This document shows positions 33,001-39,000 of a stretch of 64,000 nt of DNA, piece by piece; the stretch's first letter is position 1; the number at the start of each line of letters is the position of its first letter. The stretch spans positions 288,001 through 352,000 of the forward strand of contig CAVVMW010000005.1 in assembly GCA_963749495.1 (NCBI GenBank), read 5' to 3'. Position numbers: made by a program. Source of the DNA: an uncultured bacterium (GTDB lineage: Bacteria; Verrucomicrobiota; Verrucomicrobiia; Limisphaerales; UBA8199).

Positions 33001-36000
33001 CGCGCGGGCGATCACCTGGAGTTCCGGCTTGCGCACGCCGAACTGGTCCATCGGGAAGTTCACGAAGCCCAGGGCGAGGGCGGGGGAACCGTCCCTCACC
33101 CGGTAATCGCCCTTGGCGGGGTCCGCGAATTGCGCGTCGGCCACGAGGGAATGTTCGTCCCGGCCGCTCTGGCGTTGCAGGTTGATGGCAGGGGCGTTGG
33201 TCGCGCCGGTCCGGTGCAGAAGGTTGAAGTCCATTTCCTTGCCGGTGATCCGCCAGGTAAAGTCGCCCCAGAGCGCGGGGTGCATGGCGTGATAATAGCC
33301 GCCGGTCGGATCGGCCCAACGCGCGGCGCGATTCGTCGAGATCGCATCCGCAGCGAAGCCGTCGAAATACTGCGCCTTCGGATCGAAGTTCGGATAGCGC
33401 GCCAGGATTTGCCGCTCGCCGTTGACGAAGACCTCCTCGGTCCGCAAGTCCCCCGGCACCTTCGCCTGTAAAATGCCGCCTTGGTAAGGACGCCAGTCGA
33501 GCTTGTCCAGCCTAACGCCGCCGCTGATGATGGGCCGCTCGTTTTTGTAGGCTTGGAAAATGACCGGGGCCTTCTCCGTGCCGGAATCCTGGGCGGTGAA
33601 CACGAGTGGTGCGGACAAATAGTAAATGCCGCCCCGCAGGAACACCGTTCCCGGTTGTTGCCGCACGGCCTGCTGAGCCCGTTGGGGGCTGGCGAAGGGT
33701 CTTTCCAGCGTGCCGGGGTTCGCGTCGTCGCCAGTGGGTGCCACGAAGTATGGCCGCCCGAACGCTGTAAAGGCCATCAGGCCAAGCGACCCGCTCAGCC
33801 AGAGCAACCGGCGGAGGATCGCGATCTTTGGTTTCATGTGGAAGGCTATTTCCGCTGAAAAACTGAGTAGCCATAGATCCCAAAGGCTCTCATGTAAACT
33901 CCGTCCCGCAAGCTCCGGCGCCAGGTCTGCCACTCGTGTGCGGTGCCCGGCGATTCGTAGAACACGGTCTTGATTCCCGCCTTCTCCAGCGCATCGCGGT
34001 AGTTCTTGACACTGTCGCACATCCGCTTTTGCTCCGCTGAACGGTAGGCAGGCGGATCTGGCCGCGAACGGTCCGCACCGCTTCGTCCTGGTCACGAATC
34101 GGCAGCGTGATCCACTCCTCCCAGGTCACCGGGCGGACCTTGGAAGTGCGGAGTGCAGAGTGCGGAGTGCGGAATGAATCGAACTCCAGATCGGGTAGAT
34201 CTTCGCGCTCGATTTCCAGGCCGGTGGCCACGTTGGTGGCCATCATGCAGAACGCCTCTTGAGGCGTGCGCACGTTGATGGCCTGCCAGTTGCGGTTCAG
34301 CACCAGCACGGTCGCTTTTGTCAATGTACTGCTCATAAAAAGGGGTCGAGGGTCGAGTGACGAGGACCGGAAGCGCGCTGCGGCCGAGCTTCCCTCGTGG
34401 CCCTTCATCTGCCCAAGGTGTTTGTTCTTTGTTGAGGGCCTTAGCCTTTAGCCTTCAGCCTTCAGCCTTTGGCCTTTGAAGCATGGCTGCCTCGCCTGGA
34501 ATTGCACCAGGTCCTTCGGTTTCAGAGACCGACGCGCTCCTGATTACACCACGAGGCCCGCCGTCGCGCTTTGCGCTAAGGCGCGGCAAGCGATTGGCCC
34601 GCCGAGCCGTAGCCGGCAGGCGAAGGCTGGTCGCTCGGGAAGGTCCTGCCCCTCCGATTTCTGGGTGTAGGCCAGACGTGATGCTATTTCACCACCGAGC
34701 CTTTCGAATGCGGAACTCGGAATGCGGAGTGCGGAGTGCCAAACGAGAACGAAGGCTGCTTGTGCGCGCGCCCCCATTCCGCACTCTGCATTCCCCACTC
34801 CGCACTGGGAATGGCTGCCTCGCTTGGATTCGCACCAAGATCATCGGGGTCAAAGCCCGGCATGCTGCCGTTACACCACGAGGCAAGGAATCGGCCTGCC
34901 AAGCCGTAGCCCGGCACGTCACAAATGCTCGCCTCCGCACTAGCGTGCTTCGGCGCAGCAGCCCTCGCCACCCGTCGCGCGTGTGGCGAAGGCTGGTGGA
35001 GCCGGAGGTAGTTGCAACCTCACCAAACCCGATTAAAAGTCGGGTGCCGGTCTGCTGTGGCTTCGGATCCAGGAAAATGGTGGGCGAGAGAGGATTTGCA
35101 CCTCCAAGGCTCACAGACTCTCGATCTGTGGGGTCTGCTAATTCCCTCTGAACCACTCGCCCAAAGAAAAGTGGTGCTCCCGGCCGGAATCTCACCGGCA
35201 ACCTCAGCCTTCGGAGGGCCGCGCTCTGGTAATTGAGCTACAGGAGCAGTCCTAATGTGGAATTCGGAATGCGGAGTGCGGAATAAGAATGTGCACAGGG
35301 CTCTGCACACTCCGCATTCCGCACTCTACACTCACCACTTGAAGGGGTCTCCTGCCGGTGCTGCCCCGGCCTGGCTTGTTTACAAAACGAGCCTGCAGGC
35401 TGCCGCAAGGAGACGAGATGGCCTGCCGAGCCGTAGCGCTCGGCGCGAAGGTTGGTCGCAATCCCCAGTGCTGCCCTGGGCACGGCTGGCTTATGAAACC
35501 GGCCTGAGCGCTAGCCCTTTCAAGTGCAAAGTGGAGAATGCAAAGTGCGGAATGCACCGGGCGCGGGCGTAGCGATGATAATTCTGCACTCCGAATTCCG
35601 CATTCTGCACTGATGGCGGGTGGGTCTGCTCTTCCCCGTGAACCACGCGCCGAGAAGATGGCGTCCCTGACCGGCTTCGCTCCCGCCTTCGCTGGAAAGC
35701 TACGGCGGGGCAGGCCGGTGATCTCCTGCATGAGAGGCAGGCATTTTGTCTGGACTACACCACAGGGACTGAAAATGGTGAGGGCAGGAGGCTTCGCACC
35801 CCCAACCTGATGCATGTGACGCATCCGCTCTGGCTGGCTGAGCTATGCCCTCAAAATGGCTCGCCGAGACGTAGCTCCGAGCGAAGGCTGGTGGGGGACG
35901 AAGAGTGCTGCCCTCTTTGCCTCTCGGATGTCAGACGAGCGCTCTCCTGGTGAGCTACGTCCCCAACAAATGGAGCGGGTGGACGGAGTCGCACCGTCGA

Positions 36001-39000
36001 CTCGGCCTTGGCACGGCCCTTGGAGATAAACTAGCTCCCCAGGCTCTCCGCTCCGCCCCAGAAGTGTCGTTTTGCGAAGGCATGGCCGGACCCGCTCTTC
36101 AGGTATTTCTCGAAGTGCTGGGCCTGTTCAAGGGACTCGAACGCAACGTACACCTTGAGCGTCCAAGGTATGAACTTGGACGTGTGCGGACATTTACCGG
36201 CGTTATGGTCTGCCACTCGTTGACGGAGGTCTGCCGTATGACCGATGTACCTCTGGTCGCGGTGGCTCAAGCTCTGGATGACGTATGTGTAAAACATATT
36301 GCGGCCTGCCATCCATAGCTTGGAACCCGTTCCGTGGAAAGTCCTCCTTCGCCGAGCCTACGGAGGACATCCTCCGTTTGGCCCCCTCGCCTGGCTCGGG
36401 TTCCGAGCGGAGGATGGTGTCCCCAGCCGATTAAATCCAGAACGAAGAATGCAAAGTGCAGAACGCCCCACTCCCTCGCCATTGTCGAAAACCCAAATCC
36501 ATTTTGCATTCTTCATTCTGAATTCTTCATTTCAAAGGGCGGCCTGGATTGCGGGTCCGGTTCCGCTCGCTGGGAAAGGAGGCCGTTTCCTGCTGCTTGT
36601 GCCGCCAGCGCAGGAACTTCTGAAACCGGGCAAAATTCGTTCGGAGCGAATTTTGATAGGTTTTGTCCTCGAAGAACAAATGGCGGAATGCCGTGGACTT
36701 GCACCACTTGCCTGGAGGCACGCACTCGTTAGCACCGAGGCCCGGTTCGCTTGCCCGGTTGGCATTCCAGAAATGGCCTGCCGAGCCGAAGCTCGACAGA
36801 GCGAAGGCTGGTCGGCGTGGGGAGACTTGCGCTCCCAAGGCTGTTCGGGTTTGAGCCGAACCGGTCTGCTATTCCCGGTAAACCACACGCCGGCCCGCCG
36901 AGCCGTGGCCCGGGGAGCGAAGGTTGGTCGGCGCCCCGGGACTTGCACCCGGAAGGCTCAGCGATTTTAAGTCGCTGGGGTCTGCTGATTCCCGCTGAAG
37001 CCAGGCGCCGAGAAAATGGCCTGCCGGGTCGGAGTTCGGAGCGAGGGTCGGATGCCCGCCTACGCCTCAAAGGCAGGCTTCGGCGAGACAGTCTTCGTTC
37101 TCCGCTGCGCTCCGAACGAAGACTGGTGGGCATGGAGGGACTTGCACCCCCAAGGCTGCCAGATTCTGAATCTGGACCCTCTGCTATTCGGGTTGAACCA
37201 CATGCCCAGTTGAAATTGGTGCTCCCGGCAGGACTCTCACCTGCAACCGGCGGTTCGAAGCCGCCCGCTCTGATATTTTGAGCTACGGGAGCCCTCCAAA
37301 TGCAGAGTGCGGGATGCAGAGTGCAGAATGACGCCCTTCCGTTCTGCGTCCCCCATTTTGGATTATTCAGTTGAAAATTGGGGCCGGTGGGGAGACTCGC
37401 ACTCCCGTGGTAACTGTTCAGGTGTTGGACCAGTGCTGGCTTCGACGCCAGCGCCGGGCCCAGCCAAGCCGTTGTCCCGGAGGGACAACCCGAGAATAGC
37501 CCGGCGCTTCAGCGCCGGGTCCGACGCCCTAAAAACCCCGCGTCCCGACAGGGACGCCTGAGGCTCAGCACCGCAAGAGGCCAGCCGATTCAGCCGTCCC
37601 TCCGGGACGGGCGGGAGATTAGACCGCTTTCCCCGGCGCTGAAGCGCCGGGCTATTTTCGGGCTGTCCCTTCGGGACAACGACGGCCCTCGAACCAGAGC
37701 GCGTCCCGAGAGGCCCCGGCGGCGATGTGGCAACCCATGTGCCGAGACCTGAACAGTTACCTCCCGTGGGACGAATTGCCCGGCAGTTTACGAAACTGCT
37801 GCTGTCGCTGCTGAGCCACGCCGGCCTCCGAAATGCGGAATGCAGAGTGCGGAGTGCGGGATTGCACAGAGCCGTCACAACAACGCTTGTGCTCCTCATT
37901 CCGCACTCAGCACTCCGAACTCCGCACTGAAAATGGTGGGTCGCCACGGTGCTGCCCCGTGCTCTGCGGTTTAAGAGACCGCTGCATCGCTGCAATGCTT
38001 GCAACCCAACCGCGACACGAAGGCGGAGTTGAACCGCCGCAGCCAGATCTGTGAAGTCCTGGCCGGCACCGGTGTTCGCGTCGCGTGAAATGGAATCCCG
38101 TGTGAGAGTCGCACTCACCTGCGCGGTTTTGCAGACCGCTGCCTGGGCTGCTCGGCCAACGGGACATCTGAATGCGGAGTGCGGAGTGCGGAGTGCAGAG
38201 TGCAGAGTGCGCAATGTCTGCGGTGCTGCCCCTCAGGCATTCCGCATTCTGCACTCCGCACTCAGCATTTGGTTCACGCTGCCCGCACAAAGTCCGAGAT
38301 GACGGCTGGAACGCTGGTGTCGAAACCAACCACGTCCAGCATCCCGCGGTCGTTCGGGTCGGCCAGGGTGAAGCCACTTAAATGAAGAGTTAAGAATGCA
38401 GAATGAAGAACGGAGGACGCCCTCAGCCGCCGTTGGTCTTGATTCCTCATTGTGCATTCTTCATTCTGCATTCATGTGGGCCCAGACCATCGGCAGCGAG
38501 CAATCCGTGCCGCCCATCGGGATCGCACGGACCTTCTCGATGACGCTTTCCAGGCGCATTCGGGGCGAGAGGGCGACCCGGGTAATGCCTGACTCACCGC
38601 CACCCCGCTGGCCGCCGTGACCGCTGGCGGCTGCGCTGAAGGCGATGATCTCGCACTCGGGGTCGGTTGCCGCCGTCACCAGGGCCATGGCGATGGACAA
38701 GTGGCGCCGTAGGGTGGGGATCTCCTTACGGGAATCGAACCCGTCCGGAACTTGAATCCGGGCGCTCTCCCATGGCGAGCGTCCTCCCCGTGCTGGAGGA
38801 TGACCTGCGGACTTCGGCCCATGCGAATTGGTCAGGAAGCCGGGATTCGCACCCGGACCGTCCGCTTCACAGGCGGAGATGCTGTCCACCCTCCGCAGTG
38901 CTGCTACGGAGGACGGGCTGTTACACCACAATCCTGGAAAATGGTGCCCCCAGGTGGACTCGCACCACGATCCTCCTGCTTCGCGGGCAGGCGTGCACAT

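Follow-up and report, generated by a model that had tools for sequence, protein, structure and literature searches.

A tRNA-end hairpin and a minimal GIY-YIG nuclease gene in an uncultured bacterium of the Verrucomicrobiota point to a selfish element related to, yet distinct from, Ssn nucleases

Main finding

Our analysis points to a selfish DNA element akin to, but separate from, the Ssn nucleases that were described in 2025. The same hairpin precedes a tiny nuclease gene in this genome and in several bacterial phyla. The existence of a hairpin and GIY-YIG cassette targeting tRNA ends, proposed in the preliminary description, is well supported, but the surrounding repeats are mostly of another subtype and the hairpin family as a whole is not tRNA-specific. 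By analogy with Ssn, the cassette is probably a selfish element in which a putative hairpin-nicking nuclease, the presumed mobilising agent, works with its cognate repeats. The window analysed is a stretch of 64,000 nucleotides (contig CAVVMW010000005.1, positions 288,001 to 352,000), and the coordinates in Table 1 refer to it.

The hairpin unit and its position at tRNA genes

The unit is 32-35 nt long with the consensus CC(A)GCC-TTC-GC-loop-GC-TAC-GGC-N-TGG-CAGG, and it starts at nt 74, directly 3' of the discriminator base (nt 73), in 17 of the 85 array tRNA genes and in 1 of 52 dispersed ones. The automatic flag (left arm at the CCA) gave 16/85 and, among the Rfam-supported dispersed genes, 1/52; inspection by eye showed one array flag (C15 359569) to be false and revealed two units that had been missed (C15 359175 and C4 609931), and 18 ARAGORN-only calls had been dropped from the dispersed set beforehand. 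Both the unit described earlier and its register are real, and the 13 tRNA genes first counted prove to be a slight underestimate. Tandem copies, also part of that description, occur sevenfold behind tRNA-Thr(CGT) in C4 and threefold behind Ile(GAT). The copies are tagged imperfect palindromes found as monomers, doublets and clusters, the tag being (C)TG and not GTAG or CGTC.

A pairing-checked genome search that used no tRNA flanks gave 31 matches, against 0 in one shuffled genome; 27 of them lie at or in tRNA genes, two in a heptamer repeat, and two look like chance matches. Loose hairpin regexes returned hundreds to thousands of unspecific matches and were discarded, and ARAGORN at -ps80/-ps90 was not used for its excess noise. 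The genome assembly is 88% complete.

The unit sits between nt 73 and the old CCA, and it is inserted without any longer target duplication. The additional CCA noticed earlier at its end is present, but it comes from the unit's own arm. CCA as a target-site duplication is ruled out by the T-loop insertion at C4 602438, which has no flanking CC, and by non-CCA arms at the same position. No MITE-type target-site duplication was seen in the empty/filled T-loop pairs, and a repeat of at least 4 nt was found in 0 of 101 flanks. Empty sites, which the preliminary description lacked, were found in two forms: paralogous empty sites exist for filled tRNA genes, and contigs of relatives skip single units (four runs compared, consisting of contigs from related organisms with small word shares). 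The latter show the existence of empty alleles, not excision.

In the interval 34480-37300, eight units directly follow nt 73 of tRNA or tRNA-like 3' ends, five of them monomers (32-35 nt) and three compounds (102-113 nt). The units starting at 40609 and 40957 lie outside this interval, which is the one covered by the preliminary description.

Table 1. Features of the cassette and hairpin units in the window
Feature	Position	Strand	Basis or remark
Degenerate antisense unit with CCCGCC arm, at the 5' edge of tRNA 34487-34558	34557..34592	+	Left arm matched, remainder by eye
33-nt monomer behind tRNA 34631-34701 (anticodon TAC, from sequence)	34598..34630	-	Empty paralog C21 703195
102-nt compound behind tRNA-Lys(TTT)-like gene (identity from sequence)	34895..34996	-	Skipped by relatives' contigs
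34-nt monomer, CCAACC arm, behind tRNA-like 3' end, anticodon CAT (from sequence)	35422..35455	-	
33-nt CCCGCC-arm unit, antisense, between G53 and T-loop of tRNA-Glu(CTC)	35682..35714	+	Empty paralog in C4; joint skipping 33 nt in two runs; T-arm extended in RNA fold
32-nt monomer behind tRNA-Asp(GTC)	35860..35891	-	
3' two-thirds of tRNA-Gly(GCC), approximate boundaries	35970..36018	-	Compared with empty Arg(CCT)-Gly(GCC) junction in L005
88-aa single-domain Slx1-like GIY-YIG nuclease gene	36031..36297	-	Pfam PF01541 E 4e-12; alignment; AlphaFold; Foldseek
Compound cassette leader: outer hairpin, CCATCC arm from nt 74, and nested reverse hairpin	36305..36417	-	DNA fold z -3.2 and -4.3 (two strands)
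3' remnant of tRNA-Arg(CCT), the target	36418..36430	-	Intact in G003; intact empty paralog in C4 array
35-nt monomer behind tRNA-Leu(CAA)-like gene	36777..36811	-	
34-nt monomer behind tRNA-Leu(TAA)-like gene	36894..36927	-	Joint skipping 34 nt, three runs
107-nt compound, CCAGTC arm and nested reverse hairpin, behind tRNA-Leu(CAG)	37020..37126	-	Empty paralog C7 33703
32-nt CCCGCC-arm unit, antisense, at G53/T-loop boundary of tRNA-Asn(GTT)	40609..40640	+	Empty paralogs in C4 and C25
112-nt compound behind tRNA-Met(CAT)-like gene	40957..41068	-	

The nuclease gene and its locus

The gene is the only stand-alone GIY-YIG ORF of the genome, as had been claimed; the three other PF01541 matches lie in frames of 334-1570 aa. 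Six residues (Y5, Y17, G19, R27, H31 and E63), the catalytic ones among them, are invariant in an alignment of 52 sequences, and the conserved core ends near residue 80. The AlphaFold model has a pLDDT of 92, and its best Foldseek matches are At-HIGLE, Slx1 and UPF0213 1zg2 with E values of 2e-4 to 4e-3, compared with about 1 for I-TevI and UvrC, which indicates an Slx1-type fold. NCBIfam holds no model for the protein. The median dN/dS is 0.06-0.15 in four clades, and the cassette is under purifying selection. No homologs were found in 50,697 phage records, IMG/VR and the plasmid collections, so there is no sign of carriage by phage or plasmid.

The gene comes after a compound hairpin copy on the 3' end of tRNA-Arg(CCT). 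In the leader, the nested reverse hairpin starts at 36369, bears a TG tag and contains the SD-like GAAGGAGGA, and the right end of the leader reads GCTATGGATGGCAGG. The same-genus relative G003 has a nearly identical leader, with the tRNA-Arg(CCT) gene intact ahead of the same cassette, so there was no recent jump at this locus. About 30 nt of the 5' part of tRNA-Gly(GCC) are gone where the cassette sits, as judged against the empty junction in Table 1. The insertion here coincides with partial loss of tRNA-Gly, and the element lacks a defined right border. The junction was read directly from the sequence, since aligning the window globally with the C4 array gave no useful information over the cassette.

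A reading in which the hairpin is mainly an RNA signal, i.e. a 3' trailer, a processing or termination site or an SD-hiding translation switch, with the protein acting on pre-tRNA or tRNA in RNA-repair-type arrays, would suit several features of this locus. The arm is able to pair with CCA, the SD-like sequence is hidden by the nested hairpin, genes for RtcB and for a fragment of Ro60 lie in the same tRNA array, and the insertion point (nt 73/74) coincides with the RNase Z cut position. However, most homologs lie behind isolated housekeeping tRNAs or tmRNA and not in repair arrays, the units are patchy among paralogs and occur also antisense in T-loops and in heptamer repeats, the RNA folds of two filled tRNAs have no consistent CCA hairpin, and SsnA leaves RNA untouched (PMC11893778). 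We consider this reading highly improbable.

Arm subtypes and a second GIY-YIG subfamily

The leader of the GIY-YIG gene has CCATCC arms and the dispersed copies have CCAGCC or CCCGCC arms. Because of this difference the gene is probably not the maker of most copies, and the idea that it made the neighbouring repeats is disfavoured. CCAGCC/CCAGTC leaders precede a second GIY-YIG subfamily (46-55% identical) in 7 relatives' loci. At the C28 tRNA-Asp there are ten leader copies, and all that is left of the gene is a stub of its beginning; the same leader precedes a second-subfamily gene in G002. Most dispersed copies in this genome probably stem from this second, now lost subfamily, whose leader survives at the C28 tRNA-Asp.

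The proximity to tRNA genes reported earlier (15 of 19 matches within 200 nt) holds only for the subtype of the consensus unit given above. A sister subtype that shares its bulged core has 23 copies, and on contigs that have a tRNA no copy lies within 200 nt of one. Sister subtypes are inserted in T-loops and at non-tRNA sites. The CCCGCC subtype favours sites between G and T (preceding G in 93/101, following T in 59/101), and only 5 of 121 metagenome loci place it in a T-loop, ruling it out as a tRNA-specific subtype. No GIY-YIG gene was found near it in the 121 loci (full 600-nt flanks for 80), and these results together suggest that sister subtypes may have other mobilisers.

Homolog loci in other genomes

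Our gene-first survey found the arm at a tRNA or tmRNA 3' end, or a fragment of one, in 72 of 80 homolog loci, in agreement with the earlier claim that such genes follow a tRNA 3' end and the hairpin in relatives. The tRNA or tmRNA end was called by ARAGORN in 48 of the 80, and in a few the arm starts behind the CCA. A strict test for the bulged hairpin was positive upstream in 43/80 loci, just downstream in 5/77 and far downstream in 0/74, with 0.1 expected from shuffles. In a hairpin-first search of 250 genomes of the phylum, all 30 inspected matches follow a CCA, 21 lie directly against a tRNA end or T-arm, and the gene is present within 750 nt of 14; the positives come from 34 genomes, 18 of them of one family. 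Genome by genome, the overlap between gene and monomer is limited to 4 of 8 relatives each way, with a pattern that misses long-loop leaders and with kin that are not independent. Every clade of the GIY-YIG proteins has an arm sequence of its own, and the homolog tree has many open forks. Identical proteins are found at different tRNAs, Val(GAC) and Ala(CGC) (L023/L024), and the cassette has moved between different tRNA genes.

Another enzyme could have moved the module as a satellite of tRNA-targeting integrases or Y1 (RAYT/TIRYT) transposases, many cassettes then being island remnants. Short tRNA-like tails resembling attR scars, or no called tRNA, are found ahead in 13/80 gene-first and up to 9/30 hairpin-first loci. 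The target 3' end is repeated within 400 nt downstream in 7/70 loci, a minority though more than in the controls (controls 0/64, 1/70 and 10/783; absent at this locus), and the genome has 24 Y1 matches. We nevertheless judge this very unlikely: none of the 24 Y1 loci has the hairpin within 1 kb, the 117 ORFs within 2 kb on the downstream side, which the scan covered, include no integrase, transposase or RT, the phage, plasmid and IMG/VR searches gave no homolog, and the scars could just as well come from later islands that displaced a resident cassette.

Possible mode of spread

By analogy with SsnA, the minimal nuclease would bind the single-stranded hairpin strand with its GTA/GAA internal loop and 5' TG tag, and would nick adjacent to it. 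Against a role in mobilisation stands the fact that GIY-YIG enzymes are hydrolases for which no strand-transfer step is known. Host repair, through fold-back synthesis, microhomology joining at CC/CCA and tandem duplication, could then copy the unit or the whole leader, giving new sites and tandem arrays. The module would target tRNA and tmRNA 3' ends, and the short units would be gene-less copies of it. Insertion 3' of a tRNA would keep that gene intact, and the nuclease might be expressed by read-through from the tRNA promoter. We propose that copies pile up in accessory tRNA arrays because damage there is tolerated.

The nuclease might instead recognise the hairpin without moving it, the units spreading by slippage or recombination via the short CCA/T-arm homology of tRNA ends and the gene hitch-hiking or serving the host, e.g. 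by cutting incoming ssDNA like Neisseria SsnA. Same-site tandem copies are near-identical (seven in C4, ten in C28), as expected from duplication, the arrays are paralogous to each other and contain several unrelated repeats, monomers lack a close gene in four relatives, and in vivo SsnA has been shown only to modulate transformation (PMC11893778). We still find it unlikely, as first insertions are at tRNAs with unrelated acceptor sequences, exactly at nt 74 even without an encoded CCA, the units are few (mostly 1-5 copies per genome) and in this do not resemble a genome-wide restriction mark, and protein clade and arm change together.

A stronger form of the mobilisation that we favour would be true transposition by an 80-residue GIY-YIG enzyme without transposase, integrase or RT, with the linker at the hairpin foot pairing with the target and guiding insertion. 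This reading, which we regard as rather doubtful, is suggested by co-variation of linker and target end: a CA linker is matched by TG in 23 of 25 parsed loci and a CGA linker by TCG in 5 of 6 (about three lineages), and one locus combines CGACCA with TGGTCG. Fold-back copying of the target at insertion would equally give this pattern. If linker guiding were true, a changed linker would retarget the element, and guide sequences do retarget insertion in IS200/IS605.

Comparison with known systems

REPtrons combine RAYT/TIRYT Y1 transposases with REP/REPIN/BIME repeats (Di Nocera et al. 2013, PMC3733652, where GIY-YIG is not mentioned). Like our element, they have short imperfect palindromes with a tag, which occur as monomers, as inverted doublets and in tandem clusters next to a small gene for the cognate enzyme, and they make no target duplication. 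In contrast, the enzyme here is GIY-YIG and not HUH/Y1, no HUH/Y1 gene goes with the repeats (0/24 Y1 loci, 0/117 ORFs), GTAG lies inside the stem and is not a foot tag, and the insertion position at tRNAs is fixed.

SegB of T4/T6 is a free-standing GIY-YIG homing endonuclease that is tied to tRNA genes and drives segmental tandem amplification (PMC2330249; PMC13096335). The tRNA-gene association is shared, and the C28 and C4 arrays suggest tandem amplification here, but SegB is a phage dsDNA enzyme, whereas we have an 80-88-aa Slx1-type core with no match in the phage collections and a cognate hairpin at the exact junction. SegB has an added DNA-binding region; our protein has none, its core ending near residue 80, nor was a phage location found.

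Stand-alone Slx1-like/UPF0213 proteins (PDB 1zg2; PMC1564403) have the same fold and minimal architecture; the available part of that paper predicts the prokaryotic ones to be repair proteins of mostly vertical descent, and mentions neither a hairpin nor the tRNA-gene link seen here. An integrase by an att site, as in a tRNA-integrated island, is absent from the 117 ORFs of the downstream scan. tRNA L-arrays with the trn operon (Santamaria-Gomez et al. 2021, PMC8421152) offer a similar setting, a long array of tRNA genes that includes RtcB and further genes of the repair type, but their repeats are promoter direct repeats, GIY-YIG is not mentioned there, and our element occurs also outside arrays. 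The literature searched gave no published description of a tRNA-end hairpin/GIY-YIG element.

SsnA of Neisseria meningitidis (cd10448) binds the NTS/SRM hairpin and cuts beside it in ssDNA (Chenal et al. 2025, PMC11893778). As in Ssn, a GIY-YIG gene with a single domain and of comparable length (about 80-100 aa with catalytic Tyr/Tyr/Glu, into which the 88-aa protein falls) adjoins a cognate oriented hairpin with a non-palindromic 5' tag, and gene-less dispersed repeats occur too. Three NTS-adjacent proteins, used as proxies for SsnA, align with 31-56% identity over 18-67 aa (E 4e-6 to 4e-5), with a different C-terminal motif; these values fall short of the E < 1e-10 to SsnA that marks an Ssn protein, and they speak against membership. 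Unlike in Ssn, the hairpin here carries a TG tag and an internal loop of GTA/GAA, the SRM/NTS motif was found in 0 of 80 homolog loci (500 nt each side) and not in the own flanks and array, and tRNA and tmRNA 3' ends are strongly targeted, tRNA being unmentioned in the main text of the Ssn paper. Its authors raise an IS/REP-like origin (PMC11893778), and our data add comparative evidence, with empty sites, of insertion at a defined position, which they only hypothesised. The element accounts for a class of repeats that interrupt tRNA genes or follow them and so mislead annotation, and it would be a testable case of a minimal mobile element without recombinase and a source of candidate hairpin-specific ssDNA nucleases with predicted substrates. 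This genome lends itself to such tests, with filled, empty and tandem states together in paralogous arrays. If our reading is true, the nuclease-hairpin principle of Ssn also applies to a second and large subfamily of GIY-YIG proteins annotated as 'hypothetical' (1073 clusters at 50% identity, E <= 1e-10, with genomic context covered for far fewer).

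Hairpin units at tRNA 3' ends

We found that the hairpin unit, which in tRNA sense reads CC(A)GCC-TTC-GC-loop-GC-TAC-GGC-N-(T)GG-CAGG, is placed immediately past the discriminator base; the original CCA is pushed behind it. In the merged tRNA list, from which 18 ARAGORN-only dispersed calls had been removed, 16 of 85 array tRNA genes and one of 52 Rfam-supported dispersed genes were flagged as having a left arm at the CCA; reading by eye gives 17 array genes with the unit, where the preliminary description had 13 tRNA genes. Eight 3'-end copies, i.e. five monomers and three compounds, lie within 34480-37300. 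A pairing-checked search using no tRNA flank recovered 31 copies in the genome, against zero in one shuffled genome. Of the 31, 27 are at or in tRNA genes, two in a GTCCACA heptamer repeat and two chance-like. The left arm is CCAGCC in 24 of these copies and CCCGCC in six. Tandem copies, which the preliminary description had allowed for, were seen in runs of up to seven.

Empty sites, left open before, exist both in this genome and in its relatives. Filled and empty paralogs are paired in the same genome for Cys, Ile(GAT), Thr(CGT), Leu and a TAC-anticodon tRNA. Single units, e.g. 35681-35715 and 36891-36926, are missing from related organisms' contigs in public runs, which at 85% likeness and with short sides bear on the existence of empty alleles only. 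The CCCGCC-arm subtype sits antisense between G53 and the T-loop of tRNA-Glu and tRNA-Asn in the window, empty paralogs existing for both, and there are T-loop insertions in two further tRNA genes, on contigs C4 and C21. One T-loop insertion has no flanking CC, hence the unit brings its own CC(A/C) without target duplication.

The GIY-YIG gene and its leader

No second stand-alone GIY-YIG gene was found in the assembly, in agreement with the preliminary description. The closest homologs of the 88-aa nuclease are from Verrucomicrobiota, and Y5, Y17, G19, R27, H31 and E63 do not vary across 52 aligned relatives. Its predicted structure (pLDDT 92) matches HIGLE, Slx1 and UPF0213 rather than I-TevI or UvrC. 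The 113-nt leader of the gene, an outer hairpin enclosing a nested reverse hairpin, adjoins a 3' remnant of tRNA-Arg(CCT). In a genome of the same genus (G003) the same cassette stands behind an intact tRNA-Arg(CCT). The C4 array has the empty Arg-Gly junction, and the filled site lacks ~30 nt of the tRNA-Gly present there. The hairpin had been said to travel with the gene; the leader hairpin is indeed present, but its arm is CCATCC, whereas the pairing-checked copies carry CCAGCC or CCCGCC.

Homologous loci

The association was surveyed from the gene side in the best 80 of 145 confirmed homolog loci, 72 of which have the 6-nt arm plus core upstream of the gene. These arms start at ARAGORN-called tRNA or tmRNA ends (48), uncalled T-arm-bearing ends (11) or short 3' fragments (13), the last two groups being sorted by eye. 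The arm starts past nt 73 even where CCA is not encoded, and at a few loci past the CCA. A strict bulged-hairpin test was positive upstream in 43/80, just downstream in 5/77 and further away in 0/74. The arm sequence tracks the protein clade (CCATCC, CCACAC, CCAT[AG]C, T[CT]CTGC), and proteins that are identical or nearly so occur at different tRNAs in a tree of 79 rows, which omits two loci with internal stops and has many open forks. Four clades have median dN/dS values of 0.06-0.15. The target end is repeated downstream in only 7/70 loci, and the 117 ORFs scanned on the downstream side yielded no integrase, transposase or RT. The nuclease family is large, with 1073 clusters (E <= 1e-10), and was not found in the phage, plasmid or viral collections searched.

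From the hairpin side, a pattern containing neither CCA nor tRNA matched 34 of 250 genomes of the phylum, 18 of them from one family. CCA precedes all 30 matches in the 29 fetched loci; 21 matches lie directly against a tRNA/tmRNA end or T-arm, and for 14 the gene is at most 750 nt away. Among 40 close relatives, a close homolog is present in eight, the monomer in eight and both in four.

Behind tRNA genes there are also two distant GIY-YIG genes (33-34% identity), each followed by a further copy of the tRNA 3' part (L103 and L104 in the table); they represent a different geometry of the same tRNA tropism. The two cassettes of L392 hint that a cassette may bring along a few bases from the target it occupied before.

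Subtypes of the hairpin

The hairpin family is wider than tRNA targets. The earlier tRNA link stands for the dispersed 3'-end subtype and fails for two others. The CCCGCC subtype, which favours G|T sites, is in a T-loop at only 5/121 metagenome loci, and no GIY-YIG gene was found in the flanks examined there. The third subtype has 23 copies in the genome, mostly within other repeated elements and none near a called tRNA. In relatives, a second GIY-YIG subfamily (46-55% identity) is preceded by CCAGCC and CCAGTC leaders. The genome under study keeps such a leader, of the CCAGTC type, at tRNA-Asp on C28; some of its copies end in a stub of a lost GIY-YIG start, and the full gene is kept in another genome, G002 (L106).

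The tRNA array

The array around 34480-37300 resembles the tRNA L-arrays as portrayed in PMC8421152. It carries an RtcB-family gene together with a Ro60 vWA fragment, and five further arrays of like kind are present in the assembly (11.4 Mb, 88% complete, 5.8% contamination).

Features of the window and of loci elsewhere (plain numbers are window positions; G000, genome under study; C, its contigs; L, fetched homolog loci)
Feature	Position	Strand	Remarks
GIY-YIG gene	36031-36297		Encodes the 88-aa protein
tRNA array	~34.4-41.2 kb	-	Called in part only by Rfam and ARAGORN
ORF directly past array	33890-34408	-	Frame interrupted by heptamer repeats; N-terminus like HNH endonucleases of tRNA L-arrays; no Pfam or NCBIfam match
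Inverted (TGCGGAG/TGCAGAA)n heptamer runs	34130-41350		Second repeat family; about a dozen pairs, between and within tRNA genes
Leu tRNA-like genes, several	35078-37207	-	Odd 5' extension ahead of D arm; missed by ARAGORN
Foldback element, 212 bp	37470-37681		Two Rfam Acido-Lenti-1 matches inside; inserted into one of the array's tRNA-like genes
Ro60/Rsr vWA	38340-39183	-	C-terminal fragment only, broken by heptamer inverted repeat near 38380-38470
RtcB-family gene	39324-40647	-	Apparently split over two frames near 39550-39617; palindromic repeat in-frame; long ORF traverses heptamer inverted repeat
CCAGTC-type leader array	G000:C28:18650-19855		Ten tandem, slightly divergent copies of 117-126 nt, ~1.2 kb, past housekeeping tRNA-Asp(GTC)
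Third bulged-hairpin subtype, tandem runs	C1:801140-801270, C10:53120-53310		Within a different multi-copy element, distant from tRNA genes
1570-aa frame	G000:C12:525007-529720	+	Y1-transposase-like and GIY-YIG matches, then CCTGCC/GGCAGG palindrome
1103-aa frame	G028 (L102), another genome		Similar inserted GIY-YIG
Two GIY-YIG cassettes, 1.1 kb apart	L392:806-1986		First at tRNA-Ala(CGC), second past a short tmRNA-like tail only
Distant GIY-YIG, tRNA-Met	L103:1500-1900		Closing tRNA 3' copy; short palindrome at junction
Distant GIY-YIG, tRNA-Asn	L104:1480-2100		As for L103

Possible mechanism

On the strand opposite the 3'-end unit, a hairpin forms that contains a GTA/GAA internal loop and has (C)TG ahead of it; the nested hairpin of the leader is built alike on the sense strand. 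According to PMC11893778, SsnA acts on ssDNA, where it binds a hairpin of defined orientation and cleaves a few bases to the 5' side of the tag. By analogy, we infer that the 88-aa protein may have SsnA-like hairpin-directed activity: after the SsnA model, it would bind the oriented hairpin in ssDNA and cut near the tag, and host repair could then yield insertions, inverted copies and tandem runs of the unit. Y1 transposases are unlikely partners, with the hairpin at none of the 24 Y1-transposase loci in the genome. Linker and target end change in concert (CA with TG in 23/25, CGA with TCG in 5/6) among the 33 of 83 junction loci that could be parsed, two of which fall outside both classes; a guide would account for this co-variation, and so would fold-back copying.

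Relation to known systems

The feature is real, and probably a variant of the nuclease-hairpin selfish module, a reading that comparative sequence evidence supports well. The module is apparently new to print: a full-text literature search, with subscription papers mostly outside its scope, found no published description, and the available parts of PMC3733652 and PMC1564403 contain no such element. In its proposed working the module is like Ssn (GIY-YIG ssDNA nucleases with cognate hairpins) and REPtrons (a Y1 transposase with REP repeats), yet it departs from both in the traits compared. The SRM motif of Ssn was found in the flanks of 0/80 homolog loci, and the 88-aa protein is weakly similar to three NTS-adjacent proxies; no Y1 enzyme, the hallmark of REPtrons, was found with the module. 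With SegB (PMC13096335; see also PMC2330249) the module has tRNA association and amplification in common.
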